From Candidatus Omnitrophota bacterium (GTDB lineage Bacteria > Omnitrophota > Gorgyraeia > Duberdicusellales > 4484-171): DNA of 64,000 nucleotides. A program made the position numbers and the translations under genes. Shown piece by piece: positions 925 through 50,755 of this stretch; the stretch's first letter is position 1; each line of letters begins with the position of its first letter. The notes below the pieces were generated by a model. It was given only the letters and a program-made list of their open reading frames with translations, was not told where the DNA came from and did not search any database. The stretch is from NCBI GenBank assembly GCA_018826075.1, contig JAHKAJ010000024.1:69910-133909 (forward strand), written 5' to 3'.

Positions 925-1867
925 AAAGATTGGTCTATTTTCCACATTGATTATTATTGTTCTGCTTTTAGCCGGGAATCCTTTTTTTGTGGTCGTTGAA
1001 GGTAGCCAAGCGATAATTACTCAGTTCGGTGATCCGATCGGTCGACCGATAACCGCCGCAGGTCTACATTTAAAAATTCCTTTTATCCAAAAAGTTACCT
1101 ATTTTCAGAAACGGATACTGGAATGGGATGGTTTTCCCAATGAAATACCTACTAAGGATAAACGCTATATTTGGATAGACACTACGGCCCGCTGGAAGAT
1201 AGTTGATGCCCTTGAATTTTTCAAAACCGTTTCTTCAGAGCGGGGAGGTCAAACCATACTTGACGGGATAATCGACGCTGCTGTGCGTGATGCCATAACT
1301 TCTCAAAAATCTACTGAAGTAATCCGTTCTTCAAACCAGTTATTGGAAAATTTAAAGGTGTTACAAGCCGAGGAAGGATTTATTGACGAGGGAGCCTTAG
1401 AAGAGATAAGTTTTGGCCGGGAAAAGCTGCGCCAGGAAATAGTCCAAAAAGCCCGGGAAGATTTAGGCACTCGCTATGGCATTGAACTTATTGATGTACG
1501 GATTAAACGGATAAACTACATTGAGAAAGTTCAGCGTGATGTCTATGAACGGATGAAAGCTGAACGTAAGCGTGCAGCTGAACAATATCGTTCAGAAGGA
1601 AGAGGCATCCGGGCTGATGTTGAAGGCCGGACAGGAAAAGATTTAAAATTAATTCTTTCAGAGGCGTACAAAGAGGCTCAGCGGATTAAGGGAGAAGCTG
1701 ATGCTACAGCTACCAAAATTTACGCCGATGCTTATAATAAAGATCCTGAGTTTTTTTCTTTTTTGAAAACCTTGGAAACTTACGGTAATACCGTTGATAA
1801 AAATACGACTATAATTTTAACCACCGATGGCGAATACTACAAATATCTTAATAAAATTACCCCCTAA
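917..1867 (+). CDS. hflC: HflC, SPFH/band-7 protease modulator
   Basis: N-terminal TM segment, SPFH domain and coiled coil. Start overlaps the hflK stop. Confidence 0.8.
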   Translation: MNKKIGLFSTLIIIVLLLAGNPFFVVVEGSQAIITQFGDPIGRPITAAGLHLKIPFIQKVTYFQKRILEWDGFPNEIPTKDKRYIWIDTTARWKIVDALEFFKTVSSERGGQTILDGIIDAAVRDAITSQKSTEVIRSSNQLLENLKVLQAEEGFIDEGALEEISFGREKLRQEIVQKAREDLGTRYGIELIDVRIKRINYIEKVQRDVYERMKAERKRAAEQYRSEGRGIRADVEGRTGKDLKLILSEAYKEAQRIKGEADATATKIYADAYNKDPEFFSFLKTLETYGNTVDKNTTIILTTDGEYYKYLNKITP

Positions 1868-1889: not shown

Positions 1890-2741
1890 ATGGATACCGC
1901 CATTCTATTGATATCCTGCCGTGATCAAAAAGGCATTACTGCCGCAGTTACCAATTTTATTTATCAGTATCAGGGAAACATCGAGCATGCTGACCAGCAT
2001 ATAGACTCTCAATCTAATGTTTTTTTTATGCGTATCGAGTGGTCGCTGAAAGGTTTTGCTTTGGCCAAACCAAAAATCATCGCTAAGTTTGCCCCGTTGG
2101 CTAAAAAATTTAAAATGGATTATTCACTTTATTTCAGCGCCGAAACTTCCCGGATGGCGATTTTTGTCTCTGAAGTGACTCATTGCCTTTACGATTTACT
2201 GCTTAAGTTTAAAGAAAAACAACTGTTTTGCCAAATACCATTGATTATCAGTAATCATTCGCAGGCTAAGAAAATCGCCGAAGATTTTAATATTAAATTT
2301 TTCTTTTCCCAAAAAAATCCCCAAAATAAACTTTCAGCCGAGAAAAAGGAGATAGCCATACTGAGGAAAGAAAAAATTGATTTTATCGCTTTGGCCAGAT
2401 ACGGCCAGATTTTTACCCGGCAGTTTGTTAAGGCCTACCATACCCGGATTATCAATATTCACCATTCTTTTTTGCCGGCTTTTGCCGGTTCAAACCCCTA
2501 CCGTCAGGCTTATTCCCGGGGCGTAAAGATTATCGGAGCAACCAGCCACTACGTTACTGAAAAGTTGGATGCCGGGCCGATAATTGAACAGGATATTGTC
2601 CGGGTAAGCCACCGGGATTGTTTAGAAGACCTAAGGTTCAAAGGCCAGGATCTGGAACGCACGGTTTTCAGCCGGGCTGTCCGCTGGCACCTTGAACATA
2701 AAATCCTGGTTTACGGTAATAAAACCGTGGTTTTCGATTAA
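1890..2741 (+). CDS. purU: formyltetrahydrofolate deformylase
   Basis: N-terminal ACT-like region followed by a formyltransferase domain. The HHSFLPAF...SHYVTE.LDAGPII motif is typical of PurU. Confidence 0.85.
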   Translation: MDTAILLISCRDQKGITAAVTNFIYQYQGNIEHADQHIDSQSNVFFMRIEWSLKGFALAKPKIIAKFAPLAKKFKMDYSLYFSAETSRMAIFVSEVTHCLYDLLLKFKEKQLFCQIPLIISNHSQAKKIAEDFNIKFFFSQKNPQNKLSAEKKEIAILRKEKIDFIALARYGQIFTRQFVKAYHTRIINIHHSFLPAFAGSNPYRQAYSRGVKIIGATSHYVTEKLDAGPIIEQDIVRVSHRDCLEDLRFKGQDLERTVFSRAVRWHLEHKILVYGNKTVVFD

Positions 2742-11623: not shown

Positions 11624-12427
11624 ATGGTGCGGAAACCAGCAGTCAGCGGTCAGTTTTACCCCGGCGATAGTAAAACTTTAGGAGTGATGATCGATGGATT
11701 AATCCCTAAAGAGACCGCGCAAGTGTCAGCGAAAGCCGTGATCCTTCCGCATGCCGGCTATGTTTATTCCGGCAAAGTGGCAGTGGTGACTTTAAGCCGT
11801 GTTTTGCCAAGGAAACGACTGATCATGCTGGGGCCAAATCATACTGGGATAGGCCCCAGATTCAGTCTTTGGAGCAAGGGTGAATGGGAAATCCCTTTTG
11901 GAAAGGTTAAAATAGATGAGGACCTGGCCGAAAAGATTTTAAATGCCGGAAGTTCCATTGAAGCCGATGAGATGGCTCATCAAGATGAGTATTCGTTGGA
12001 AGTGCAGTTGCCGATTTTTTACCGGCTTTTTGGCGAATTTAGTTTTGTTCCGATTGCCTGTCAGGCTGCAGATCTAAAGACTTATCGGCAGGCAGCCGAG
12101 CAAATTGTTGGAGGTTTGAAAAAAATAGATCAAGAGGTTCTTTTTGTGGCTACAACCGATCTGACTCACTATGAACCAGAGCTGGTTGCCCGGGCAAAAG
12201 ACCGGATAGCCATTGCAGCGATGATAAGCCTTGATGATGAGGCTTTGATCCGGGAAGTTGAGAAAAATCAAATAACTATGTGTGGAGTAGCTCCGGTTGC
12301 AGTCTTACTGGGTTGTTTAAAAACAATTGGCGCCCGCAAAGCCGGGGTCTGCCTTTATCAGACCAGCGGCGACTCAAGCAGTGACTACGGTTCAGTAGTC
12401 GGTTACGTCGGGATAACCATTAAATGA
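11624..12427 (+). CDS. amrB: AmmeMemoRadiSam system protein B (MEMO1-family)
   Basis: The VSGQFYPG...LPHAGYVYSG...HYEPE pattern is typical of Memo/AmrB. Confidence 0.75.
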   Translation: MVRKPAVSGQFYPGDSKTLGVMIDGLIPKETAQVSAKAVILPHAGYVYSGKVAVVTLSRVLPRKRLIMLGPNHTGIGPRFSLWSKGEWEIPFGKVKIDEDLAEKILNAGSSIEADEMAHQDEYSLEVQLPIFYRLFGEFSFVPIACQAADLKTYRQAAEQIVGGLKKIDQEVLFVATTDLTHYEPELVARAKDRIAIAAMISLDDEALIREVEKNQITMCGVAPVAVLLGCLKTIGARKAGVCLYQTSGDSSSDYGSVVGYVGITIK

Positions 12428-12434
12428 AGGAGAA

Positions 12435-12785
12435 ATGATGGATCAGGAAAATCAAAAAAAAGTCGATGAAAATTGGAAAAACCAGGTTAACAAGGAAAAA
12501 AAGGAATCCGTAGATAGTAATGATGTTTATCATCAACCGACCTTTTCAATTTTTCTATCTTCCTTGGGAATGCAGGCAATGATTGCTATGGGTAAGCTGG
12601 AAAATCCTTTAACTAAAAAAAGTGAGACTAATTTTGAACAGGCCAGATTCCTGATTGACACTTTAGGAGTTATTGAACAAAAAACCAGAAATAACCTCAA
12701 CCCGGAGGAGAAAACACTTTTAGAAGAGTATCTTTACAATTTACGGATGATGTATATAGAGTTAAAGAAGTCCACTAATGATTAA
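12435..12785 (+). CDS. hypothetical protein (possibly DUF1844-like)
   Basis: Conserved-looking ORF with good coding periodicity. No confident family assignment. Confidence 0.4.
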   Translation: MMDQENQKKVDENWKNQVNKEKKESVDSNDVYHQPTFSIFLSSLGMQAMIAMGKLENPLTKKSETNFEQARFLIDTLGVIEQKTRNNLNPEEKTLLEEYLYNLRMMYIELKKSTND

Positions 12786-12796
12786 CCAGGAGGATA

Positions 12797-13264
12797 ATGC
12801 TTATGAAAACGAACCAGAGAAATAAAATTTTAGTTATTCATGGCCCGAATCTCCATCTTTTAGGAAAGCGCCAGCCGGAGGTGTATGGAAATTTTAGCTT
12901 AAAGGAGCTTAACCAGGGCTTAGCCGAAAAAGCCAGAAAAAAAGGAGTGGATTTAAAAGTTTTTCAATCAAATTCCGAAGGCGAAATCGTTGAAAAAATA
13001 ACAAAATTTAAATATGATTTTTTGATCATTAATCCGGCTGCTTATACCCATACTTCGGTGGCAATCCGCGATGCGCTTTTGGGGGTAAACAAACCGACTA
13101 TAGAAGTGCATATTTCTAATATTTACCGCCGTGAAGAATTCCGCAAAAAGTCCTTGGTCAGCGATGTGGTTTTAGGGCTGATCAGCGGATTAGGCAAAGA
13201 GAGTTATTTACTGGCTCTTGATGCGGCAATAACTTTTTTAAAAAGCCGAAATTTTAAACCGTGA
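12797..13264 (+). CDS. aroQ: 3-dehydroquinate dehydratase, type II
   Basis: The KILVIHGPNL..LG.R.P..YG and NPAAYTHTS..IRDAL motifs are typical. Confidence 0.85.
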   Translation: MLMKTNQRNKILVIHGPNLHLLGKRQPEVYGNFSLKELNQGLAEKARKKGVDLKVFQSNSEGEIVEKITKFKYDFLIINPAAYTHTSVAIRDALLGVNKPTIEVHISNIYRREEFRKKSLVSDVVLGLISGLGKESYLLALDAAITFLKSRNFKP

Positions 13265-14325
13265 ATTCGAGGATAAAAAAATGTTTGGCTTTATTGGAAA
13301 AAGCAGATTGTCCGGCTCTTTTAGTCTCTAACCCTTTAAATACCGTTTACCTTACTGGATTTTCTGATATTTCGGGGTGTCTTTTGGTGAGTTTAGCCGC
13401 CAAGCCAGTCTTTTTTACCAACTTTCTATACCAAAAAGCCGCGGCGAGAATTAAAAACTGCCGAGTAGTCGTTGCCGAAGGCTCCCAGGACCTGCTTAGC
13501 CTAATCGCTAGAACGGTTAAAGCCTTGAAAATTAAGCGATTGGGATTTGAACCTGACAATTTTACCTACGGCCAATATCAAGTTTTAAAGGCTAAAGTTG
13601 ATGGTTGTGGCCTTAAATTGGCAGCGGTTAAGGGGTTTGTGGAGAAGTTACGGATGATCAAAGAGCCGCGGGAATTAAAACTGATAAAAAAATCAGTAGA
13701 GATAACCCGGCTGGCTTTGACTTATGCCGGCCAGATCCATTCTCAGATAGCGACTGAAAAGGATTTAGTCATTGAAATAGAACGTTTTTTACGCCTTAAA
13801 GGCGATAGTGAGATTGCTTTTAATACTATTGTTGCTTCTGGCGGAAACACCGTTTTTCCGCACCATTTTTCTAACCATACGCAAATCAGCAATAAGTTTT
13901 TCCTAATTGATTTAGGCTCAAAATATTATGGATATTGCGCTGACTTGACAAGGGTATTTTTTTGGGGTAAAATGCCCATTCTTTTCAAAAGAATATACGA
14001 TACGGTGCGTAAAAGCCAGGCTGCGGCGATTAAGAAAATTAAAGATGGGGCCAGGGCTTGCGATGTTGATTTGGCGGCCCGCCGGATAATCGAAAAACAA
14101 GGCTGGGGCAAGTATTTTGGGCATGGTCTAGGCCATGGGATCGGTTTGGCGGTGCACGAAGAACCCCGCTTAAACTCAAAAAACACCGCAGTGCTCAAGG
14201 AAGGCATGGTGGTTACGGTTGAGCCGGCGGTTTATTTTAAAAATCAATTCGGTATTCGCATAGAGGATATGGTTTTAGTAAAGAAAAATCACTCTGAGGT
14301 GCTTAGTGGGGATATCCATAGGTGA
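13261..14325 (+). CDS. Xaa-Pro aminopeptidase / M24 family metallopeptidase
   Basis: Creatinase-like N-terminal domain plus an M24 domain containing HGLGHGIGLAVHEEP. Confidence 0.8.
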   Translation: MNSRIKKCLALLEKADCPALLVSNPLNTVYLTGFSDISGCLLVSLAAKPVFFTNFLYQKAAARIKNCRVVVAEGSQDLLSLIARTVKALKIKRLGFEPDNFTYGQYQVLKAKVDGCGLKLAAVKGFVEKLRMIKEPRELKLIKKSVEITRLALTYAGQIHSQIATEKDLVIEIERFLRLKGDSEIAFNTIVASGGNTVFPHHFSNHTQISNKFFLIDLGSKYYGYCADLTRVFFWGKMPILFKRIYDTVRKSQAAAIKKIKDGARACDVDLAARRIIEKQGWGKYFGHGLGHGIGLAVHEEPRLNSKNTAVLKEGMVVTVEPAVYFKNQFGIRIEDMVLVKKNHSEVLSGDIHR

Positions 14326-35457: not shown

Positions 35458-36708
35458 TTAAGGGCTTTTTTCGGGATTAAACCGGGAAATCTGCCTGATT
35501 CGTTCTAAAACCGGTGGATGGCTATAATCCAGGAATACTTTTAAGTGGTGAGGGGTTAAATTAGAAAGATTGTTTACAGTCAGTTTTTTTAAAGCCAGGA
35601 TAAAAGCCTCAGGCTGATCATAGGTAGTTACTGAAAACCGGTCAGCTTCATATTCGTGCCGCCGGGAAAACAGGTTGCCGACTATGGAAAAAATAAAGCC
35701 TATCGGGGTATAAAGAAAACTGAAAAAAATAAGGCTGGCATAAACCGAAATTTGCTCCATCCTAAAAGCTTCAAACAGCCCCGGATTGTTAATAAAAAAA
35801 GAAAGCAGGTAAAACATCAGACCTTTAGTTAGGATCGAGTAGATAAAATTTTTCAGGATATGATTTTTTTTATAGTGGCCGACTTCATGAGCTAACACTG
35901 AGACTATTTCGCTGACACTGTGTTTTTGGATCAAAGTATCGTAAAGGGCGATCCGGCGGGACTTACCAAAGCCGCAAAAGAAAGCGTTAGCTTTGGTTGA
36001 ACGCCGTGATCCATCGATTTTATAAATCCCTTTTAAAGCAAACTTTTGCGAATCAGCATAACGGTTAACCGCATTTTTCAGTTCCCCGTCTTCCAAAGGC
36101 CTAAACTTGTTAAAAAGTGGCAAGATCAACAACGGATAGATAAAGGTGATCAGCCAGCTGAAAATAACCACTCCTAGCCAGCACCAGATCCAAGCTCCGG
36201 GCCCAAAACTGGCAAAAAGAACAATAATCGCATAAAAAGGAAGGCCGCCGATAATCACTAAAAGCAGCCAACTTTTAAGCTTATCGGCAATAAAAGTTTT
36301 AACCCGGGTTTGGTTAAACCCATATCTTTCTTCGATAACAAAAGTGCGGTACCAGGAAAAAGGTAACTCCAGAATTTGAGCGACAAAAATAATGATTCCG
36401 GCAAAAATCAATCCGGTTAACGCGAAATTTAAATTCAGGCTACGGGCGATCCGGTCAGCCAGGTTAAAACCTCCGATCAGAATAAAACCGACAACCGCTA
36501 AAGTAAAGACTGTTTCCTGAACCAGGTTGAATTTGGTATTTGTGGTAAGGTATCTTTGGGATTTACGGTAGCTTTCCGGTTGATAATAGCCTTTAAATTC
36601 TTCTGGCAGGTCAGGATCAAGCGCCCTAAGGTTAAGGATTTCAGCTAAAAACCTAAACAGGTAGTTAACGGCTAAAATAGTTAAAATCGCGATTAGATAT
36701 AGATTCAT
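35458..36708 (-). CDS. Ste24-type (CAAX prenyl protease-like) M48 family zinc metalloprotease, polytopic membrane protein
   Basis: About seven TM helices. HEVGHYKKNH (HExxH) and downstream E...NLSN motifs of M48A. Confidence 0.75.
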   Translation of the reverse strand: MNLYLIAILTILAVNYLFRFLAEILNLRALDPDLPEEFKGYYQPESYRKSQRYLTTNTKFNLVQETVFTLAVVGFILIGGFNLADRIARSLNLNFALTGLIFAGIIIFVAQILELPFSWYRTFVIEERYGFNQTRVKTFIADKLKSWLLLVIIGGLPFYAIIVLFASFGPGAWIWCWLGVVIFSWLITFIYPLLILPLFNKFRPLEDGELKNAVNRYADSQKFALKGIYKIDGSRRSTKANAFFCGFGKSRRIALYDTLIQKHSVSEIVSVLAHEVGHYKKNHILKNFIYSILTKGLMFYLLSFFINNPGLFEAFRMEQISVYASLIFFSFLYTPIGFIFSIVGNLFSRRHEYEADRFSVTTYDQPEAFILALKKLTVNNLSNLTPHHLKVFLDYSHPPVLERIRQISRFNPEKSP

Positions 36709-36984: not shown

Positions 36985-38031
36985 TTATTTAGCCAAGTGC
37001 ACAGTTTGAGTCGGAAAGGCAAATTCAATACCGCGTTTTTCAAGTTCAGCCTTTATCGAAAAGTTGATTTCCTGCTGAATATCCATATACTTGTTGTAAT
37101 CCGAACTTAACACATAGTAAACCACTTCAAAAACCAGGTTAAAATCGCCGTAAGCGGAAAAATGAGCCCGGTCAAAAAGCGCATCTTTGACTTTTTTTAT
37201 GATCTCGGCAATCGCCCCCGGCATTTCTTTGAGTTTGGAGAGCGGAGTGTCGTAGGTGACTCCTAGATGAAAGACAACCCTTCTTTTCTGCATTCGTTTA
37301 TAGTTACGCAGGCGGGAATCAGTTAAATCAGAGTTAGAAAAAACCAGTTCTTCTCCGCCAAGGCTACGAATGCGAGTAGTCTTGATGCCGACGTGTTCGA
37401 CAGTGCCCAGAAGGTCTCCGACTATGATAAAATCGCCTATTTCAAAGGGACGGTCAATAACAATTGCAAAGTAACTGAATAAATCTTTTAAAACTGCCTG
37501 AGCCGCTAAAGCTATGGCTACACCACCGATACCCAGGCCGGCAATAACCGTTGTAATTTTAAACCCCAAGTTATCCAGATAAAAAATAAGGGCTAAAACC
37601 CAGATCGAAAATTTAACTACCTTCAATACTCCACTCAAGCTGTGTTTTAATGACTGGCCTTTGTCGGATTTATGCCAGTATACTTCAAAACCATAGTTGA
37701 CCAAACGGATGATCAGGCGAACCGAAAACACAGTCAGAACCGCAATGGCTAAGGTATTAATAATCCGCACCAGATAATCGTTTAAAGTTAGGGACTTGAT
37801 CCCTAGGTATAACCCAAAAAGGTAAAGAAAAGGTACGGCTATCTTTTCAATGATCTCCACTAAAAAATCGTCAAGGGTATTGCTGGTTTTTTCTGCCCAA
37901 CTTTTAAGACGTTTTAAAAAGATTATTTTAAATACTTTGGCCGCAAAACTGATGCCTAAAAAAATAGCCGCACAAATCAAATAACTCAACAATGAATTAC
38001 CAAAAAATATGAGATTTAGAGACTCTGGCAT
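36985..38031 (-). CDS. mechanosensitive ion channel, MscS family
   Basis: Multiple N-terminal TM helices followed by an MscS beta-domain (IGDFIIVGDLLGTVEHVGIKTTRIRSLGGEE). Confidence 0.8.
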   Translation of the reverse strand: MPESLNLIFFGNSLLSYLICAAIFLGISFAAKVFKIIFLKRLKSWAEKTSNTLDDFLVEIIEKIAVPFLYLFGLYLGIKSLTLNDYLVRIINTLAIAVLTVFSVRLIIRLVNYGFEVYWHKSDKGQSLKHSLSGVLKVVKFSIWVLALIFYLDNLGFKITTVIAGLGIGGVAIALAAQAVLKDLFSYFAIVIDRPFEIGDFIIVGDLLGTVEHVGIKTTRIRSLGGEELVFSNSDLTDSRLRNYKRMQKRRVVFHLGVTYDTPLSKLKEMPGAIAEIIKKVKDALFDRAHFSAYGDFNLVFEVVYYVLSSDYNKYMDIQQEINFSIKAELEKRGIEFAFPTQTVHLAK

Positions 38032-38045
38032 AATTCCTCCTGAAC

Positions 38046-39239
38046 TTAGTTTTCCGATATTAAATAGGGAGATTTGGCCTTTTGTATATTTAGAGCGATA
38101 GAAAGCTCTTGTTCTGATAAAAAGCCGGATTCCTTTAGGATCTCACCAAGAGCCACGCCTTTTTTCCAATGAGTCAAAAGGGCTTCGTTAAGTTGTTCGG
38201 CAGAGATTGATTGCCGTTCGACTAAAATCTGGCCCAAAGGTTTATAGAAGCTTTCGGATTTACGTTGGGAAATCTCCGGCTTAGCATCTTTGTTTATTTT
38301 AGTATCCCGGCGGTCAACCATAAACTTACTTCCCGGGATAGCTTTCAGATAACGTTTTATCTCAGCGACCTTCTCATTGAGCTGGATCATGTTTTCAATT
38401 CCAAAAGTATACTCTTTATTTACTACCGCCACCGAAACTGTCATTAAAGGCGTATTAGTAAGTTTACGCGACCGGTCCCGGCTTACCACAAAACCCTGCT
38501 GACGGTCAGTTTCAGAATAATGAAAAGGCATCAGCTGGTCAAAATTCTTAATGAAGTTACGGCAAATCTTTTGATATTTGTCCAAGCTGGAAATAAAAAC
38601 GAAATCATCGCCTCCAATATGGCCGACGAAATCGTCGGGATTGCCGAAATTTCTTACTGCCGCGATCAATAAATAGGCAGTCTGAAGTATCGCCCCGTCT
38701 CCTCTACGGTAACCATAAACATCATTAAAAGATTTAAAATTATCGATATCCAAGTAAGCAAAAGAAAAAGGATTGCCTTTTTTAAATTTTTCATTCAGAA
38801 CATCCTCAAATATCTTGCTTCCGGGAAGGCCGGTTAAAGAGCTGGCATAGATGCTATGTTGAGAACGCCTGACCGCCATCTCGATTCTTATCCGTAAATC
38901 TAATGGGTCCGGTGGTTTTATTAAATAGTCATCCACGCCTTGTTTTAAGTTTAACAACTGGGCTCTTAATTGGCGTTTATTGATTAGGGTTATAACCGGT
39001 ATAAAAGCAGTGGTGAAATTTTCTTTTAACTGCCGGCAGATAGCCAGTTGTTCCTTACGGGCAGATTGGATATCGATGACAATCACATCGGGTGAAATTT
39101 TTTTGATTTTTTCGATATCCTGAGGTTCAGAGAATTGGCGCAAAATAACTTCATAGCCCCAGCCGTCAAAGCAAAAACGCAAAACTTCCTTTAGCTGGTT
39201 GTCAGAAGAAATAATCAGGATTTTCTTAATGGTATCCAT
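38046..39239 (-). CDS. response-regulator receiver, GGDEF diguanylate cyclase and C-terminal MshEN-like c-di-GMP-binding domain
   Basis: REC domain (DIVIIDIQ, Asp pocket). GGDEF domain with GGDDF active-site motif and RGDG. The C-terminus carries two LG(Q/E)IL...(S/L)..(E/Q)L..AL repeats typical of MshEN/T2SSE_N. Confidence 0.75.
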   Translation of the reverse strand: MDTIKKILIISSDNQLKEVLRFCFDGWGYEVILRQFSEPQDIEKIKKISPDVIVIDIQSARKEQLAICRQLKENFTTAFIPVITLINKRQLRAQLLNLKQGVDDYLIKPPDPLDLRIRIEMAVRRSQHSIYASSLTGLPGSKIFEDVLNEKFKKGNPFSFAYLDIDNFKSFNDVYGYRRGDGAILQTAYLLIAAVRNFGNPDDFVGHIGGDDFVFISSLDKYQKICRNFIKNFDQLMPFHYSETDRQQGFVVSRDRSRKLTNTPLMTVSVAVVNKEYTFGIENMIQLNEKVAEIKRYLKAIPGSKFMVDRRDTKINKDAKPEISQRKSESFYKPLGQILVERQSISAEQLNEALLTHWKKGVALGEILKESGFLSEQELSIALNIQKAKSPYLISEN

Positions 39240-39352: not shown

Positions 39353-42300
39353 TTATTCTTTTTTTGGTTTCTTTTGTTCCTCGGATATTTTTTGGGCGAT
39401 TTCCTTAGGCACCGGAATATACTTTTTAAAGTGCATTGAACAACTGGCCCGGCCGCTGGAAAGTGACCGTAGATTAGTGACATGGCCGAACATCTCAGCC
39501 AAAGGAGCTTCAGCCAGGATCTGTTTCTGGCCGCCTTTAGTCTCCATGCCCAAAATTTTACCTCTTCGGGAACAGATATAACCGACAATGCTGCTGGTGT
39601 ATTCTTCGGGAGTGAGGATCTCTAAATCCATGCAAGGTTCAATAAGGGTTGGCTCGCACTTTAAAAAAGCTTCACGAAAACAGCCCAAAGCCGCAAGCTT
39701 AAAGGCAATCTCTGAAGAATCGACCTCATGATAGGAACCATCGATAAGGTTTATTTTAATATCCACTACTGGATAACCGGCATAAGCGCCTTTCTTCATG
39801 GCCTCAATAAGGCCCTTTTGAACTGCCGGAATAAAATTTTTAGGTATAGCCCCACCTTTAATGCTGTCAGTAAATTCAAATCCGGCTGCCGGCTGGTTAG
39901 GAGAAAGCTCAAAAACTACGTGGCCGTACTGACCTCGTCCTCCGCTTTGTTTAACATGCTTATATTCCTGAGTTGCTGAGCCGGAAATTGTCTCTTTATA
40001 GGCTACTTTGGGCTGACCCACCGTAGCCGAAACCTTAAATTCTTCTTTGAGACGCTCAACAATTATTTCCAAATGCAGTTCGCCCATTCCCGAAAGAATT
40101 GTCTCAAGAGTCTCTTCATCAGTGTGAGCGGTAAAGGTCGGGTCTTCTTCGGTAAGTTTAGCGATTCCTTTAGCCAACCGGTCCTGATCAGTGCGGCTTT
40201 CCGGTTTGATGCTTATCGAAACTACTGGATCGGAAAAAACTATTGATTCAAGCAGTATGGGGTTTTCTGAATTGCAAAGAGTATCTCCAGTTAAAGTAAA
40301 GTTCAACCCGACTATTGCTCCGATATCACCGGCAAACATAACGTCAACGTTTTCCCTCTGGTTGGCATGCATGCGGACAATCCTACCCACGCGTTCTTTT
40401 TTATTTTTAGTCGCGTTTAGAATATAACTACCGGCCTTTAAAAACCCCGAATAAACCCGTGCGTAAACCAACTTGCCTACGTGTTGATCAGCCTGAACCT
40501 TAAAAGCTAAGGCCGAAAAAGTTTCCTCATCCTGAGGCTTACGTTCTAATTTTTTTTCCGGGTCATCAGGGTCATTGCCGATCACTGCCGGTACTTGGGC
40601 CGGCGACGGCAAATAAACAGTAATCGCATCAAGCAAATCCTGGATACCTTTGTTTTTTAAAGCTGCTCCGCATAAAACCGGTATGATCTTATTTTCAACT
40701 GTCGCCTGATGCAGAGCTTTCTTAATCTCCTCGTTAGTAATTGTATCTTCTGACTGAAGATATTTTTCCATCAGTTGGTTGTCAAAAGAAGCAACTTTTT
40801 CTATTAAGCTGTGGCGGTATTGTTTAGCCAACTCCTTGTCGTTTTCGGGTATTTCTTCCAGCTTGATATCTTTGCCGAAGGAATTCTCATCATAAAATTT
40901 AGCCTTCATCTCAATAAGGTCGATCACACCCTTAAACTCAGTTTCTTTGCCGACCGGTATTTGTAAAGCTACGGCATTAGCCCCGAGAGTAGTGACTATT
41001 TCCTGAAAAACTTTAAAAAAATCAGCACCCAGTCTGTCCATTTTGTTAATAAAGGCTATTTTGGGGACTTTATATTTAATCGATTGGCGCCAGACAGTCT
41101 CGGTTTGTGATTCAACTCCGCCTACCGCACAAAATACTGCGACTGCTCCGTCAAGAACCCTCAAAGATCGTTCTACCTCAGCGGTAAAATCAACGTGGCC
41201 AGGAGTATCAATGATCGTGATCTGGCAATCAGCCCAATTACAGGTAGTTGCTGCTGAAGTTATGGTAATGCCTCTTTCCTGTTCTTGTTTCATCCAATCC
41301 ATCTGGGCAGCTCCGTCATGGACTTCGCCGATTTTATGAGAACGGCCGGTATAAAAAAGAATCCTTTCAGTGAGCGTAGTCTTTCCAGCGTCAATATGGG
41401 CCATAATGCCGATATTGCGGATTTTATCCAAAGTTATTTTTCTTTCCGGAGGCGGTTCTTCTTTTTTCTTAACCATCTCCGTCTTGACTTCCGGTTCGGG
41501 TTTAGCTATCTCTTCCTCTGCCGGTAGCTGGATCGGGGCCGGATTTTCAGCTAATGGTTCTTCAGCTGGAACTTCCAAAGGCGGACTTTCTTCAGGCAAC
41601 TCGGGAATTGCCGGTTTTTCTTCCGGGTTTTGCGGTTCAGGCGTTAAAGTAACGGTACGCTCAAGACCCCGCAACTGGTTAAGAATACGGATCCTTTCCT
41701 CATCAATTTTTTTTGTTTCTTCCTCTTTGAGCGTCAACTCCTTTTTTTTGATTTCCAGTTCGTCTCGCAAATTTTCACATTGATTTTCCAACAAAGAATA
41801 ATCTTCTTTGGAAATCCAGCCGCTTTGACGCTCTTGTTCCTTAAGTTTGGTCAAATCGGCCAGATATTGGTTTTTTTCTTTAGCTAGATCCTGCATCTTT
41901 TGGCCCTGCTCTTTGGCTTTAGTCTCTAATAAGATTATTTTCTCATTTAGCTGGCTGAGGTTTTCCTCTTTTATCCCGATCACTTCTTCGGTTTGCTTAA
42001 GGTCCTTCTTAAGCTGGACATTATTGGAAAATTCTTTTTCCAACTGTTTTTCGGTTTCAATGAATTTAAACTTTAAAGTTTCATAAGGGCCTTTGCCTTT
42101 TTTCAAAATATCCTGTTGGCTATTCAGCCATTTTTTATTTCGTTGCAGTTCATCAGTCAACTCTTTGACCTTTTGGCTGCTGGCCTGATATTTTTGCTGT
42201 AAAGCCAAGTTATCAGTCTTAGCCTTTTCCAAAGAAATGTTTTCATTTCTAACTTCTAACATTTCCCGTTTTAAAATTTTAACATTTTCATGAAGGGTGA

Positions 42301-42439
42301 GGATTTTTTGAGCCTCGGGGCTGGACTTGGAAAGGAATCCCCGGCTAAGCAATTTTTTCGGGTCTAAAGAATCGTCGGTATTTACCGCGTAAAGAACCAG
42401 GGCTACCGCTACTCCGATAAAAAGAAAAATTACCACCAT
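39353..42439 (-). CDS. elongation factor G homolog fused in-frame to an N-terminal TM anchor, ~250-aa coiled coil and Pro/Glu-rich linker
   Basis: Residues ~340-1028 are a full EF-G ([14 protein letters not shown], domain [11 protein letters not shown]). Residues 1-330 are a hydrophobic N-terminus, Lys/Glu/Gln-rich heptad sequence and a PEPE linker, with no stop codon in the frame. An internal Met ~20 aa before the G-domain could be an alternative start. Confidence 0.7.
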
Positions 42440-45844: not shown

Positions 45845-46579
45845 TTATATTAATAAGCTTACTAAAGAAATTAGAATACAATAGTAACCAAAAAAACTGA
45901 ATTTTTGATTTTTTAAAGTTTTGTTGACGATAAATAAAGCTAAAAGCCCCGACAGGAAAGCAGCGAAAAAACTGCCTAACAAATTAATCGGGACTATTTT
46001 TAATTCAGTCAATTCCCGGGCTTTAAGGAAAAAAGCGCCTAAAATAGCCGGGATAGCCATTAAAAAAGAAAAGGTGAAAGCTTCCTGAGGGGCGAAGCCT
46101 TTTCTAAGTAAGCTGGAAATAGTTATCCCTGAGCGAGATATTCCCGGGAGCACAGATAAGCCTTGCAGCAAACCCAAAGATAAAGCATCTTTAAACTTAA
46201 TCTCATGATGGTGTTTCTTGCCAGAAGTTTTCTTTAAACTCAACAGAATCGCAGCATTGATTAAGAGAAAAAAAGATATGAAAAAACGGCTTTCAAAAAA
46301 ATTGACTAAAAAACGGTCGATAACCAAACCAATTATAGCAGTAGTAGCAGTAATGATAGTCAGATTAAAAAAGGTTTTTTTTCGAAAAAGGAGCTTAACT
46401 ATTTGACGGCGTAAAAATATAACTATTGCTAGTAAAGTCGCCAGATGTAACAAGACAAAAAAAGGAATTAAATTATCTGAAAGGTGGGTGAGACGTTTGA
46501 TAATAAATAAATGGCCGGAACTGCTTACCGGCAGGAATTCAGTCAATCCTTGGGCAATACCCAAAGCTATTGTTTTCAC
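45845..46579 (-). CDS. uppP: undecaprenyl-diphosphatase
   Basis: The GI.QGLTEFLPVSSSGH and GISRSG motifs of BacA/UppP. Confidence 0.85.
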   Translation of the reverse strand: MKTIALGIAQGLTEFLPVSSSGHLFIIKRLTHLSDNLIPFFVLLHLATLLAIVIFLRRQIVKLLFRKKTFFNLTIITATTAIIGLVIDRFLVNFFESRFFISFFLLINAAILLSLKKTSGKKHHHEIKFKDALSLGLLQGLSVLPGISRSGITISSLLRKGFAPQEAFTFSFLMAIPAILGAFFLKARELTELKIVPINLLGSFFAAFLSGLLALFIVNKTLKNQKFSFFGYYCILISLVSLLI

Positions 46580-47229
46580 GCACTTCGTCCTTTCACAAAA
46601 AGATAAACAAAAATTAAAAAAATAACAATGCCGACGACTAAGATGACATATTCAAATATATCCGATTTTTCTTTTTCCAACGGTAGCTTATCTAAAGAGT
46701 ATGATTCCTTTCTTTCACTTGTTTCATCAGGCAAAGGTTCAGAGAGTTTCGGCTCGAGATTCTCCGGTTCAGGCTCGTTTAAGCTTTCCACCACCGCCGG
46801 TTCAGTATTTTCGACGACTTTATCTTCGGCCGGTAAAGGCGGAACTGAACTTCTCTCATTTTTATCTGCAGGGATATCCGGCAGAATTTCATTATCTTGC
46901 TGGTTTGCCGGCTGACTGGCGGCTACTGGTTCTGGTTCGTTGCTGGCTGCTTCTTGAGGAGTTTCGGTTACAATTGGTGCAGCTTCCTGGGAGGATTCAG
47001 GTAGTTCGATATCTATCCCTTCCCCGGGGACATATTCTATGTCGGCATTTTGTGATGTTTGCTCAGGCTTACTTTCCTCAGGAATTGCTAATTTATCCAT
47101 CAGCTCACCTAAGGTGCTACGGCAGTCATGACAAACACAAAGATGTTCTTCAACCAACTTGATCTCTTCGTCGGTCGCAGTATGGTTAAAGTATTTCGGT
47201 ATTACCCCTTTGATCTCTTGACAATCCAT
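46576..47229 (-). CDS. putative zinc-finger (zf-HC2) anti-sigma factor with an acidic Pro/Glu-rich periplasmic region and C-terminal TM helix
   Basis: HLCVCHDCRS zf-HC2 motif near the N-terminus and a single C-terminal TM segment. AGGGAGGG ribosome-binding site. Confidence 0.5.
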   Translation of the reverse strand: MDCQEIKGVIPKYFNHTATDEEIKLVEEHLCVCHDCRSTLGELMDKLAIPEESKPEQTSQNADIEYVPGEGIDIELPESSQEAAPIVTETPQEAASNEPEPVAASQPANQQDNEILPDIPADKNERSSVPPLPAEDKVVENTEPAVVESLNEPEPENLEPKLSEPLPDETSERKESYSLDKLPLEKEKSDIFEYVILVVGIVIFLIFVYLFVKGRSA

Positions 47230-47299: not shown

Positions 47300-49294
47300 T
47301 TAAAATTCGTAGTTAACTTTAACGATGAAATTTCTGGTCGGATTAGGGTATAAATTATAAGCTCCGGTAGTAGCATTCCTCACTCCGTATTCGCTGTATT
47401 CACGGGAAGCTAAATTGTTAACGCCGGCCAAAAACTTCCAATTATCTCGGGAGTAAGATAAAGATAGATTGATAGTTTGATAGGCTCCAATCCGGTCATA
47501 CCTATTAGCCTGATCATTAATATAAAATTTTTCATCGATGCAGTTAGTTGACAGGTCGATTTTTAAACTTTCCAGCGGCAGCCAACGCATGCCAATCAGA
47601 ACTTTATTGCGCGGTACCATCGGAATGGTATTTCCGGCATAGGAATCGCCCCGGAAGGTCGCCTTAAGATAAGTATAGTTACCGTAAAGCTCAAGCCAGC
47701 TAAAAAATTTAGCATCAAAGGAAAATTCGATCCCGTCACGCCGGGTCTTGTTGTAATTTTCGTTGGCGCCGAAAGCAAAAGGGCCTCCGGTGGGATTATA
47801 ATAAAGTTCGTTTTCCAAATCCATCCGGAATAACGACAAACCGGCCTGGAAATTATCATTGAACTTTTGCTCGGTTCCGATTTCGAAATTATCGGAAACT
47901 TGGGGTTTCAAATCCAGATTAAGCGAACCCCAGGTAAAATATTCGTCGGTTGCCGGGGTACGGAAGCTTCGGCTGATGTTTAAAAATACTTTTGATTGTT
48001 CGGTATGGCTATAAACCAAACCGCTGTTGTAAGCTTTCTGGTAAAAGTCGCTTTTACGGTCAATGTCGGGATAGGTCCCGGAATTATCATGATAATCAAA
48101 ATCGTAGCTTACCTTTTCTCTGCGGTAGCCTCCGATCAACTTTAACTTTTCAAAAATTGAAAATTCATTCTGAAAGTAAGCGGCGTAGGTTGTTTTATTA
48201 ATATCGTTGAAGTCCTGAAGCTGATCGGAAAGATTGTAAGTGTCGGCGCTGTAGTCGTATTGATATATATCGATACCGGCGATCAAGCTATTGTCGTGGC
48301 CGAAAAACGGCTGTTTAAAAGCATGTTTAGAGGTTAAGGAAAAGGTTTCAATATAGCTTTTAAGAATCGGATTCCAGCCGGCATTGGCTCCCAAAAAGTA
48401 ACTGTATGCATCGCGGTTACGAAATGACAGATCAACTGAGCTTTCTCCCCATTGGCCAAAATCTTTATCTAATCCCAAAGTGAAATAATAGTCTTTTTCT
48501 TTAACATAATCGTCCCCGTATTTAGAGTGGGTTCGGTCAAAAACTTCTAAATCGGTTCCGCTTAAATTACCGGGCAGGCCAAAGTCAGCTTTGTGAAAAC
48601 CGCTGTCAAAACGTAAATTCCAATCCGGACCGAAAGCATATTCAAGCTTTGATCCGAAATCATAACTTTTAAGATAGCTGTTATTGCGATAACCGTGGGT
48701 ATGAATACGACTTCCGGTCAGCTGGTAAGAAAGTTTTTCCAAAGAACCGCTCAAGGAGAGCTCTTCAGAATCAAAGTTATAGCTGCCATACTGGCTTTTG
48801 TAGCTGAGTTTGGGTTTACCCCGGCCTTTTTTGGTAATAATATTTACTACGCCGGATACGGCATTGTCGCCGTACAAAACCGCTCCCGACCCGCCACGGA
48901 TGACTTCAATGCGTTCAACCTGGCTTAAAGGTATTTGCGACCAATCGACGCCGCTTAAGTCGACTTCATTGATTCTTCTTGAATCAATAAGAACTACCGA
49001 GTTCATTGCTGCCTGTTCGCCAAATCCCCTAATGTCAATAGAAGCTTTAGCTGAATTACCATACCAATCTCTGACTACAATACCGGGGACAACCCTTAAG
49101 CTATCCAAAACTGTTACCGGATTACCGTTTTCGATATCCTCTTGGCCTATAACCGTCAATGAACCACAAGTTTGGCCGGCTGCCTGGGGGTAACGATAAG
49201 GGGTCACTACTATTTGTTCTAAATTAATCTGTTGAGCCATTAAATAAAAAGGAACCGCTAACAACCATGAAAGAACCGTTAATGTTTTTTTCAT
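47300..49294 (-). CDS. TonB-dependent outer-membrane receptor (BtuB-like, cobalamin-riboswitch controlled)
   Basis: Signal peptide, plug domain, beta-barrel with C-terminal aromatic residue (…VNYEF). Start set at the Met after the leader of the ORF-track ORF. The cobalamin riboswitch lies immediately upstream. Confidence 0.8.
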   Translation of the reverse strand: MKKTLTVLSWLLAVPFYLMAQQINLEQIVVTPYRYPQAAGQTCGSLTVIGQEDIENGNPVTVLDSLRVVPGIVVRDWYGNSAKASIDIRGFGEQAAMNSVVLIDSRRINEVDLSGVDWSQIPLSQVERIEVIRGGSGAVLYGDNAVSGVVNIITKKGRGKPKLSYKSQYGSYNFDSEELSLSGSLEKLSYQLTGSRIHTHGYRNNSYLKSYDFGSKLEYAFGPDWNLRFDSGFHKADFGLPGNLSGTDLEVFDRTHSKYGDDYVKEKDYYFTLGLDKDFGQWGESSVDLSFRNRDAYSYFLGANAGWNPILKSYIETFSLTSKHAFKQPFFGHDNSLIAGIDIYQYDYSADTYNLSDQLQDFNDINKTTYAAYFQNEFSIFEKLKLIGGYRREKVSYDFDYHDNSGTYPDIDRKSDFYQKAYNSGLVYSHTEQSKVFLNISRSFRTPATDEYFTWGSLNLDLKPQVSDNFEIGTEQKFNDNFQAGLSLFRMDLENELYYNPTGGPFAFGANENYNKTRRDGIEFSFDAKFFSWLELYGNYTYLKATFRGDSYAGNTIPMVPRNKVLIGMRWLPLESLKIDLSTNCIDEKFYINDQANRYDRIGAYQTINLSLSYSRDNWKFLAGVNNLASREYSEYGVRNATTGAYNLYPNPTRNFIVKVNYEF

Positions 49295-49321
49295 ATTTTT
49301 CTCCCGGATAAAAATACTCAA

Positions 49322-49356
49322 AAATAAAAAAACCCTATACCGCATTTGGTATAGGG
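49322..49356 (-). terminator. intrinsic terminator (expression platform of the cobalamin riboswitch)
   Basis: Minus strand CCCUAUACC-AAAUGC-GGUAUAGGG followed by UUUUUUUAUUUUU, about 30 nt before the receptor start. Confidence 0.55.
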
Positions 49357-49439
49357 TGCACCCTGATTTACTTAGCCCTAAAAAATAAATCTTTCAAGTC
49401 ATTCCGCGTAACTTAAAAAAATTCTCTAACCTTTGATCA

Positions 49440-49585
49440 GGTATTCTGACTTCCCCGCTCTCTTAGCGGCCTTCCCATCCGGCTGGACAGTGGCTAAAAG
49501 GCTAAAAGAGTTCCCCGAATTTCGGGGCAGGGTTACAGCTGCGGGACAGCTACCGATTCGCACGGTATTCCCTAAACCAAAGAAT
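49440..49585 (-). promoter_or_regulatory. cobalamin (AdoCbl) riboswitch
   Basis: Minus-strand RNA contains UUAGGGAAUACCGUGCGAAUCGGUAGCUGUCCCGCAGCUGUAA (compare consensus AGGGAA..GGUG.AAAUCC..GCUG.CCCGCAAC.GUAA). It also has the B12 box AGCCACUG and a downstream GGGAAGGC. Confidence 0.7.
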
Positions 49586-49589
49586 AGTC

Positions 49590-50096
49590 TTAATTTGACA
49601 AAAGAGCAAGTTTAGCCTTGCGGCTTGGGACCTTTTTGGATACAAATTCATAGGTACCCAAAAGTACCAGCATATAAAATACATTTGAAACTAATGACGT
49701 CCTGAAAAAAGGTATGGCTAAAGTGTAACATTGGATTAAACCGTTTATTGTCCGGGGATACCAGCCACCCAGCCAAACACCGAGATTAGTGACAATAAAA
49801 AAGATGACCGAAGAAATCGCAGCATAAGAAAGATTGGTCACCAGGCTTTGATTTCGTTTTAATCGTTTACCCAACAAAGTTATCAGAAAAACACTGCCCC
49901 AGGTAAATAAAACTACTCCGTGTAACCCGATTATCAAATCGGAGATGACATAGAGTACTATCGGCAACCAAAGCGAATATTTTTTATTCAGGTAAGCACC
50001 CGAAAACAAAGCGATGGCTATGATTGGGCTAAAATTAGCCAAATGCGGGGTTAACCGGGAAGCCAGGCCAAGAATAAACAACGCGATTATTAACAT
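49590..50096 (-). CDS. hypothetical polytopic membrane protein (168 aa)
   Basis: About five TM helices. No confident family assignment. Confidence 0.45.
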   Translation of the reverse strand: MLIIALFILGLASRLTPHLANFSPIIAIALFSGAYLNKKYSLWLPIVLYVISDLIIGLHGVVLFTWGSVFLITLLGKRLKRNQSLVTNLSYAAISSVIFFIVTNLGVWLGGWYPRTINGLIQCYTLAIPFFRTSLVSNVFYMLVLLGTYEFVSKKVPSRKAKLALLSN

Positions 50097-50152
50097 AGTA
50101 ATGTAACCATATCAAAGGTTAAAGTTTCTGTCAAGTAATTTTTAATTTTATC

Positions 50153-50225
50153 TGCCCCCATCCCGAATCGAACGGGAATTTCAGCCTTAGGAGGGCCGCG
50201 CTCTATCCGTTTGAGCTATAGGGGC
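50153..50225 (-). tRNA. tRNA-Arg (anticodon CCU)
   Basis: 73-nt cloverleaf on the minus strand. Acceptor GCCCCUA/UGGGGGC, D-stem GCUC/GAGC, anticodon loop CUCCUAA, T-arm UCCCG-UUCGAUU-CGGGA. Confidence 0.85.
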
Positions 50226-50239
50226 TAAACGATTAGGCT

Positions 50240-50755
50240 TTAATATTTGATCAGCGAATATACGGGGTATCCGGCCAACTTCTCTTTTCCTTTCAAAAAA
50301 GTCAGCTCAATAAGAAAAGCGATGGCGGTAATCTCGCCGTTAAGTTTTTTTACCAGTTCAATCATAGCACTGGCGGTTCCACCAATCGCCAGAAGATCAT
50401 CTAAAATCAGAATTTTTGCTCCGGCCGGGAAAGCATCCTGATGGATTTCCAATGAATCTTCTCCGTATTCCAAAGCATAAGTGTGACGGTAAGTTTTGGC
50501 CGGAAGCTTCCCGGGTTTTCGTACCGGAACAAATCCACAACCTAATTTGTAGGCTAAGGCCGCTCCAAAAATAAAACCCCGTGATTCGGCAGCCACAACA
50601 TAATCAATATCTTTATCAGCGATCAACCCGGCCAGTTGATCAATCGCCGAAGGAAAAGCTTTCTTATCATTTAAAATCGTAGTTATATCCTTAAATAAAA
50701 TTCCTTTCTTTGGAAAATCTGGAATATCCCGGATAAGTTTTTTAAGTTCACTCAT
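50240..50755 (-). CDS. apt: adenine phosphoribosyltransferase
   Basis: The IRDIPDFPKKGILFKDIT and PRPP-binding motif ILILDDLLAIGGTA. Confidence 0.85.
   Translation of the reverse strand: MSELKKLIRDIPDFPKKGILFKDITTILNDKKAFPSAIDQLAGLIADKDIDYVVAAESRGFIFGAALAYKLGCGFVPVRKPGKLPAKTYRHTYALEYGEDSLEIHQDAFPAGAKILILDDLLAIGGTASAMIELVKKLNGEITAIAFLIELTFLKGKEKLAGYPVYSLIKY

Follow-up and report, generated by a model that had tools for sequence, protein, structure and literature searches.

A cobalamin riboswitch between a DUF6580 gene and a TonB-dependent receptor gene in an Omnitrophota bacterium: a predicted intercistronic transcription attenuator

A stretch of 64,000 nucleotides from a Candidatus Omnitrophota bacterium (assembly GCA_018826075.1, contig JAHKAJ010000024.1, positions 69,910 to 133,909 of the forward strand; hereafter the window) carries on its minus strand a cobalamin riboswitch located between a gene encoding a small DUF6580 membrane protein and a gene encoding a TonB-dependent receptor. 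Its aptamer (49419..49595) is a genuine cobalamin riboswitch of the class-I type (long form) and is predicted to bind a corrinoid. The riboswitch very likely acts as a B12-dependent transcription attenuator, i.e. as an OFF switch operating by termination, ahead of the gene of a presumed corrinoid receptor. It thus adds a member to a well-known class, with an expression platform of a type already described, and it probably operates inside a transcript that also includes the DUF6580 gene.

When the whole window was scanned with Rfam, RF00174 (cobalamin riboswitch) was the top of the four matches obtained at gathering thresholds. This match lies at 49595..49419 on the minus strand (79.4 bits for a gathering score of 31.5, E 6.6e-18), and its alignment spans positions 1-189 of the 189 positions of the model, i.e. 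it is not truncated. The cobalamin riboswitch that an initial annotation of this DNA had placed upstream of the receptor gene is thus confirmed, and every sequence block quoted in its support was found on the minus strand, within 49200..49750, where it had been reported. The alignment shows P1, P3, P4, the L5 loop and a peripheral extension of P6, and the P2 hairpin is missing (1 nt in place of the 23 of the model). The block GGGAAUACCGUGCGAAUCGGUAGCUGUCCCGCAGCUGUAA is located at 49572..49533, and the L5 loop UCCCG, the aptamer side of a putative kissing loop, at 49542..49546 (position from the Rfam alignment). Two further blocks, GCCACUG (49494..49488) and GGGAAGGC (49476..49469), belong to the P6 peripheral extension. 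The core blocks GGGAA, UCCCG (L5), GCCACUG, GGGAAGGC and AGUCAGAAUACCUG all fall on consensus positions of the model. The initial annotation had given the name of B12 box to GCCACUG, which is indeed a conserved block. This name is said to have been attached historically, by Vitreschak in 2003 and Nahvi in 2004, to a 3' block of the form rAGYCMGgAgaCCkGCcd. We therefore take AAGUCAGAAUACCUGAUC (49452..49435), which aligns with the model consensus gAGCCAGGAGACCuGCC, to be the classical B12 box and GCCACUG to be another conserved aptamer block.

The expression platform was compared among nineteen related riboswitches that lie directly upstream of receptor-type genes, and the same order of elements was found downstream of P1 in all of them. 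In the window, P1 is followed by the P13 hairpin, AAGUUA[CGCGGAA]UGACUU (49396..49414), whose loop L13 (49408..49402) complements L5. In an alignment of 11 sequences, all seven pairs of the P13 stem vary on both sides, 89% of the P13 cells are paired (22-44% if the partner is slid by 1-3 columns) and the covariation score was reached by none of 500 shuffles. The L5 loop (xCCCG) is nearly invariant among the nineteen riboswitches, and the L13 motif CG-N1-3-GGA, which complements L5 UCC-CG if a bulge is allowed, is present in 13 of 18 sequences. The predicted duplex between L13 CGCGGAA and L5 UCCCG amounts to -6.8 kcal/mol, compared with -5.4 and -4.6 kcal/mol for two downstream G-runs, and would supply the pseudoknot between aptamer and platform. 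The core stem of P13 is worth only -1.1 kcal/mol (-9.4 kcal/mol with its AU-rich extension), and this low stability fits a helix that would depend on the kissing loop to persist.

The AU-rich extension of P13 reaches into the UUUA of the next element, a putative antiterminator 5' segment UUUAGGG (A1, 49376..49382, minus strand), which complements CCCUA(U)A, the sequence with which the 5' arm of the terminator opens. In a MAFFT alignment, covariation between antiterminator and terminator could not be assessed column by column, as the register of the pairing shifts from one sequence to another, and duplex energies were compared instead between the A1 region and the terminator arm of the same locus or of other loci. 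Duplexes with the own arm have a mean energy of -8.87 kcal/mol, those with arms of other loci -6.91 kcal/mol, and none of 5000 permutations reached the mean of the own arms. A1 varies together with the arm, as in UUAGGA:UCCUAA (L026), AUUGAG:CUCAAU (L030) and UGAGGA:UCCUCA (L051). Compensating changes are also seen relative to a close relative, L093, where one pair between A1 and the terminator 5' arm goes from A-U to U-G and the closing pair of P13 from A-U to G-C.

The intrinsic terminator (49320..49357, minus strand) consists of a 10-bp stem, ACCCUAUACC/GGUAUAGGGU, with the loop AAAUGC, followed by U7-A-U5; the arms of the hairpin are CCCUAUACC (49356..49348) and GGUAUAGGG (49341..49333). 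An independent consensus scan recovered a terminator-like site at 49357..49332, with a 10-pair stem including 5 G-C pairs and a 6-nt loop, then TTTTTTTATTT. The hairpin is predicted at -15.7 kcal/mol by RNAfold. The terminator of the initial annotation therefore stands, with the correction that its U tract is interrupted by an A and is not a run of eight U. A strict search for perfect stems found a terminator 45-64 nt past the aptamer in 15 of the 19 related loci, and the remaining four have an imperfect hairpin followed by a U run; the position of the terminator is kept and its sequence is variable.

A conserved block, CAGGGUGCA (A2, 49357..49365, minus strand; general form C(A)GGGUGCA), abuts the terminator. 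Ten of the 11 platform sequences in this subgroup have its GGGUGCA in spite of a variable terminator arm, and the block occupies the same position in L002, L013, L015, L016, L022, L023, L026, L027, L051 and L093. It can pair with the CCCU of the terminator arm, which yields a 4-bp mini-hairpin of -4.5 kcal/mol. A pairing of A2 with the 3' core of the aptamer (CCUGAU:AUCAGG), present in the minimum free energy fold of the window sequence, was dropped, as this complementarity is not kept in relatives. It was also considered that A1 or A2 could play the part of L13. This was dropped in favour of the first hairpin, which directly follows P1, has a covarying stem and a loop that fits L5 best, and holds the CGG that pairs with CCG in Priestia megaterium (PMC10327014).

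A published counterpart of this platform is the repressing metE corrinoid riboswitch of P. megaterium (Kennedy and Taga, PMC10327014), which likewise combines an L5 (CCG):L13 (CGG) kissing loop, a weak P13, an antiterminator and a terminator. It has been tested by mutation: the kissing loop stabilises the weak P13, and in the ligand-free RNA an antiterminator forms between the 3' strand of P13 and the 5' arm of the terminator (PMC10327014). By analogy, the following model can be proposed for the riboswitch of the window. Transcription would start at a promoter-like site upstream of the DUF6580 gene, and the riboswitch would work between two cistrons. When a corrinoid is bound, the L5-L13 kissing loop would stabilise the weak P13 together with its AU-rich extension, the antiterminator segment would remain unengaged and the terminator would form, so that the RNA polymerase would halt upstream of the receptor gene. 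When no corrinoid is present, P13 would be unstable, UUUAGGG would pair with CCCUA(U)A and the polymerase would read through. The DUF6580 protein would thus be made whatever the B12 level, and the costly outer-membrane receptor only when B12 is scarce.

The two platforms differ in several respects. The antiterminator segment of the window is located some 14 nt past the core stem of P13, in the AU-rich extension, whereas that of P. megaterium is part of the stem proper, and the window has the extra conserved A2 block before its terminator. The host belongs to another phylum and the regulated gene is different. Compared with the long adenosylcobalamin-type forms of RF00174, such as those of Escherichia coli btuB and Thermoanaerobacter tengcongensis, the aptamer of the window shares all of the core blocks, including GGGAAGG, and the P6 extension but lacks P2, and it adjoins the end of an upstream coding sequence rather than a promoter. 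The E. coli btuB riboswitch also precedes the gene of a TonB-dependent receptor, but its read-out is occlusion of the ribosome-binding site and that of the window would be a terminator.

Several features weigh against attenuation as described above. The antiterminator (-4.8 kcal/mol as a hairpin, -7.3 kcal/mol as a duplex) is much weaker than the terminator, so that the switching decision would have to be kinetic, and it is perhaps incomplete. The near-invariance of L5 means that the kissing loop rests on complementarity and not on covariation, and 5 of the 18 L13 loops fit L5 poorly. No conserved pairing partner of A2 was found among the related sequences, and this block has no assigned role in the model. 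Moreover, the related sequences are phylogenetically linked, and the shuffle and permutation controls overstate significance to that extent.

The placement of the riboswitch relative to the upstream gene, which the initial annotation had overlooked, is conserved. The DUF6580 gene (49590..50096, minus strand) ends at the first bases of the aptamer: its stop codon UAA (49592..49590) is already part of the Rfam match, at its very beginning, and precedes P1 by three bases. Measured from the start of the Rfam match, the DUF6580 stop is found at -54 to +15 nt in 17 loci, and mostly at -6 to +15. The only promoter-like sites found in 49000..50300 are TTGACA-17-TATGGT with an extended TG (50106..50134, minus strand; 10 of 12, a consensus match only) and one overlapping it. 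Both are located between the DUF6580 gene and a gene for tRNA-Arg(CCU) (50153..50225, minus strand) that lies 56 nt upstream of the DUF6580 start. Since the DUF6580 gene ends at the first bases of the aptamer and no promoter-like site lies between them, the DUF6580 gene, aptamer, terminator and receptor gene probably form one transcript, in which the riboswitch would be an intercistronic attenuator. In L002, the locus of the closest receptor orthologue, DUF6580 is absent and a tRNA gene, truncated by the end of the contig, lies about 200 nt upstream of the riboswitch. If it is the same tRNA as tRNA-Arg(CCU), this suggests a gain or a loss of DUF6580 at the junction.

Two other readings of the regulatory region have to be considered, one for the output of the riboswitch and one for the origin of its transcript. 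Control could be translational, or dual, through the kissing loop and P13, in the style of E. coli btuB or env8HyCbl, and the hairpin with its U run would then be incidental; the best-studied btuB riboswitch indeed acts mainly on translation through L5-L13 (summarised in PMC10327014). However, the Shine-Dalgarno sequence of the receptor gene, GGGAG (49301..49305, minus strand), lies downstream of the terminator, at least 15 nt past the U tract, is unpaired in the predicted platform structures and has no complement in the platform, and the terminator is kept at a fixed distance in all 19 related riboswitches despite sequence change. Translational control is consequently unlikely, and we give it very little credence beside attenuation. 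It is less easily set aside, although still doubtful, that the 3' coding end of DUF6580 conceals a promoter from which the riboswitch is transcribed as an ordinary 5' leader, DUF6580 then being a separate transcription unit. The scan that weighs against such a promoter relied on an E. coli-type consensus applied to Omnitrophota, whose promoters are uncharacterised, and this tempers the intercistronic reading. Weak 9-of-12 sites occur 40-121 nt upstream in 3 of the 17 loci, and L002 runs the same riboswitch from what looks like its own promoter, TTGACA-16-TACAAT (11 of 12), which ends 19 nt before the aptamer. Yet no sigma-70-like site of at least 9 of 12 is found by this consensus within 160 nt upstream in 14 of the 17 loci, whereas the same lineage has sites of 10-11 of 12 where they are expected, i.e. 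before DUF6580 in the window and before the aptamer in L002. In addition, most loci keep the stop codon no further than about 15 nt from the start of the aptamer, so that no untranslated space is left for a promoter. The single transcript with an internal attenuator is thus retained as the probable arrangement.

The gene under control encodes a TonB-dependent receptor of 664 residues (47300..49294, minus strand) with a signal peptide, a TonB-box-like EQIVVTP, a plug (PF07715, 73 bits) and a barrel (PF00593, 160 bits). The initial annotation was right about the nature of this protein but had given it 681 residues. The mechanical open reading frame (ORF; 47300..49345) begins at an ATG located inside the terminator loop (49345..49343), and the in-frame ATG at 49294, six bases past GGGAG, gives the true 664-residue protein with the N-terminus MKKTLTVLSWLLAVPFYLMAQQ. 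The same protein is found at NCBI (P0001, 100% identity), from a Candidatus Omnitrophica metagenome-assembled genome. Its family comprises 1,567 relatives at E<=1e-20, and the named members among the best 120 are all from Omnitrophota/Omnitrophica. A scan of a contig collection, from which this lineage is absent, gave one distant match, the plug domain of a Draconibacterium protein (30% identity), and a literature search combining Omnitrophota, cobalamin and TonB returned nothing relevant. Like E. coli BtuB, the receptor has a plug, a 22-strand-type barrel and a TonB-box-like N-terminus, and it is placed under a cobalamin riboswitch.

The genomic environment of the receptor family was obtained by fetching the DNA around seven orthologues (46-64% identity) and scanning it with Rfam. 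All seven loci carry RF00174 (73-111 bits). Overall, orthologues of 44-64% identity in other Omnitrophota are preceded by this riboswitch, either directly or with btuFCD in between. Two architectures recur. In the one, [cobA/btuR]-DUF6580-riboswitch-receptor-TonB-like gene, are found L003/L004, L008/L009, L010, L011/L012 and L093/L094, the last pair having been reached through its DUF6580 protein. The other, [cobA/btuR]-riboswitch-btuF-btuC-btuD-receptor, is that of L005 and L006/L007. The cobA/btuR gene is present upstream in L008, L011 and L006. In L002 (64% identity), the order is tRNA-riboswitch-receptor, with the riboswitch directly upstream of the receptor gene. In these Omnitrophota loci, DUF6580 and btuFCD therefore alternate in one slot between cobA and the receptor gene. 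As this receptor family is consistently found within a B12 regulon, the reading of its members as corrinoid importers is supported. TonB-dependent receptors encoded directly after cobalamin riboswitches are moreover the standard signature of corrinoid receptors (as cited in PMC6072759).

The DUF6580 protein of the window (168 residues, PF20221, 155 bits) is predicted to be a six-helix membrane protein resembling the S-components of energy-coupling factor (ECF) transporters. It gave no NCBIfam hit and, by phmmer, no PDB hit. An AlphaFold model based on a 52-sequence alignment (predicted local distance difference test, 84.6; predicted template modelling score, 0.80) has the S-component fold, and its best structural match is BtuM, with 15% identity in the structural alignment. 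Homology to BtuM is not detected by sequence: neither phmmer nor a profile of the 52 sequences, run against all PDB sequences, hit 6FFV or 8OVV at E<=10. Among the 52 homologues, C123 is conserved in at least 90% and two further residues, H18 and R14, in all. BtuM of Thiobacillus denitrificans is a solitary S-component that transports vitamin B12, and its invariant cysteine (Cys80 in BtuM_Td) is a cobalt ligand (PMC6072759); another S-component for B12, CbrT, belongs to an ECF transporter (PMC5997447). DUF6580 differs from BtuM in being a separate Pfam family and in being often encoded next to a DUF4430 protein (transcobalamin C-terminal-like), a pairing that has not been described for BtuM. 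Neither EcfT/CbiQ nor btuFCD genes were found among the approximately 50 ORFs scanned in the 64-kb window.

The genomic context is the stronger evidence for a transport function of DUF6580. A metagenome scan with the DUF6580 alignment yielded 80 loci (38-59% identity), with at most 3.5 kb of flank and roughly 360 kb in total. Cobalamin riboswitches occur a few per genome, and chance alone would bring one or two into this amount of DNA. A B12 riboswitch (RF00174 or the adenosylcobalamin-II type RF01689) is found in 32 of the 80 loci. It immediately follows DUF6580 in 13 loci, as in the window, and lies upstream on the same strand in 15, L061 being counted in both groups; it is divergent from DUF6580 in four loci and about 3 kb downstream in L017. 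The riboswitch directly precedes DUF6580 in L053, L061 and L092, and the order riboswitch-receptor-DUF6580 is seen in L043, L074, L075, L087 and L089. DUF4430, the domain found at the C-terminus of B12 binders of the transcobalamin type (PMC4350170), is encoded between the riboswitch and DUF6580, and a PduO-type cobalamin adenosyltransferase is encoded after DUF6580. A DUF4430 gene is located immediately upstream of DUF6580 in 20 of the 80 loci; CobA and BtuF neighbours are also seen, and a riboswitch, DUF4430 or PduO neighbour is present in 45 of the 80 loci, a number that is at least as high when CobA and corrinoid receptor genes are counted as well. No mention of DUF6580 or PF20221 was found in the searchable literature, and the name given to one member by NCBI is 'DUF6580 family putative transport protein'. 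L061 displays a peculiar arrangement, in which two full cobalamin riboswitches (1082..1317 and 2023..2239; 94 and 101 bits) flank one DUF6580 gene, one of them being upstream of it and the other between it and the next gene.

The assignments of the two proteins encoded on either side of the riboswitch both have to be weighed against other functions. The receptor could import another substrate, e.g. pyrroloquinoline quinone (PQQ) or a metallophore, and the riboswitch would then tie its uptake to the B12 status only indirectly. In a comparison with PDB sequences, its barrel is nearest to YncD/PqqU (E about 1e-34) and only its plug is nearest to BtuB. It remains below every curated NCBIfam cut-off, including those of the BtuB hidden Markov models (141.1 for 599.7 with TIGR01779, 96.8 for 836 with NF007926), and the best-scoring stretch in both models is restricted to its N-terminal 203 residues. 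In addition, JGI names its relatives 'iron complex outermembrane receptor protein', and neither cob genes nor genes of B12-dependent enzymes, the latter of which the initial annotation had proposed to look for, were found among the approximately 50 ORFs of the window that were scanned. These points count against a corrinoid importer. However, the orthologues terminate riboswitch-btuF-btuC-btuD operons and adjoin cobA/btuR, the receptor gene comes right after a cobalamin riboswitch and the 'iron complex' names are generic and automatic; a non-corrinoid substrate thus appears highly improbable. The 'BtuB-like corrinoid importer' of the initial annotation is accordingly kept for its presumed function, which is suggested by regulation and synteny, and not as a BtuB equivalog.

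The case of DUF6580 is more balanced. It may not be a corrinoid transporter at all but an MreD-like or another S-component-fold protein whose adjacency to riboswitches is incidental. L044 and L088 combine DUF6580 with btuF(CD), 35 of the 80 loci have no B12 neighbour in the DNA fetched and, in loci of the window type, the DUF6580 gene itself is not under the riboswitch, all of which calls for caution about a role in corrinoid transport. With the frequency of B12-related neighbours and the structural match to BtuM on the other side, an unrelated function seems the weaker possibility, though one to be taken seriously. We lean slightly towards the view that the DUF6580 family consists of corrinoid transporters that resemble BtuM without being related to it in sequence, and the protein of the window is a candidate for the inner-membrane partner of the receptor. 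Taken together, these readings lead to a scenario that we consider evenly poised. DUF6580 proteins would be widespread, so far unrecognised BtuM-like transporters that replace BtuFCD in Omnitrophota, within a two-gene operon split by a riboswitch into a constitutive inner transporter and a B12-repressed receptor. The abutment of the DUF6580 stop codon and P1 may couple the termination of translation with the folding of the aptamer. In other phyla, DUF6580 would act together with a transcobalamin-like DUF4430 binding protein and a PduO adenosyltransferase, under the control of a B12 riboswitch.

A 60-residue ORF on the plus strand (49433..49615), which the initial annotation had already regarded as spurious, is very probably not a gene. 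It starts with TTG, lies wholly antisense to the aptamer with its 79-bit RNA match and gave no Pfam match at E<=1, and the equivalent gap is free of called genes on six related contigs. Since stop-free antisense stretches of 38-81 residues are frequent over related aptamers, its open frame is uninformative either way.

Other features of the surroundings can be noted. The gene that follows the receptor gene (46576..47229, minus strand) encodes a zf-HC2 protein (anti-sigma-like) with a C-terminal transmembrane helix and a long linker rich in acidic residues and Pro. Only the closest relative, L002 (2668..3444), has kept it, and a TonB-like protein of 228 residues is encoded at this place in the other Omnitrophota. 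Memo and M24 peptidase genes are located directly downstream of the receptor-TonB pair in L003, L008 and L011. In the window they lie at 11624..14325 on the plus strand, i.e. about 35 kb away and on the opposite strand, which implies that the surroundings of the B12 uptake locus were rearranged. A cyclic di-GMP-I riboswitch (RF01051; 36777..36934, minus strand; 61.7 bits for a threshold of 35), with a 71-nt insertion in its second hairpin, lies upstream of a gene encoding an M48/CAAX-type peptidase (35458..36708, minus strand). Just upstream of this riboswitch, an MscS-like channel (36985..38031, minus strand) and a response-regulator GGDEF protein (38046..39239, minus strand) are encoded. An EF-G-like GTPase of 1028 residues (39353..42439, minus strand) carries an N-terminal extension of about 330 residues, coiled-coil Lys/Glu-rich and then Pro/Glu-rich, before a complete set of EF-G domains, an unusual architecture for an elongation-factor paralogue.

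The riboswitch described here is one more well-behaved member of the most widespread riboswitch class, found in a poorly studied candidate phylum, and it allows an anonymous 'TonB-dependent receptor' to be annotated as a presumed corrinoid importer. BtuCDF is missing from about half of the B12-dependent bacteria, for which few inner-membrane transporters of B12 have been identified (PMC6072759). DUF6580 is a concrete candidate for B12 import in such bacteria. The succession of DUF6580 stop codon, aptamer, terminator and receptor gene would constitute a clean natural case of a riboswitch that, within an operon, uncouples two transport steps. The interest of this locus is somewhat raised by the conserved intercistronic placement of the riboswitch at the DUF6580 stop codon and by the evidence pointing to an unrecognised family of transporters.

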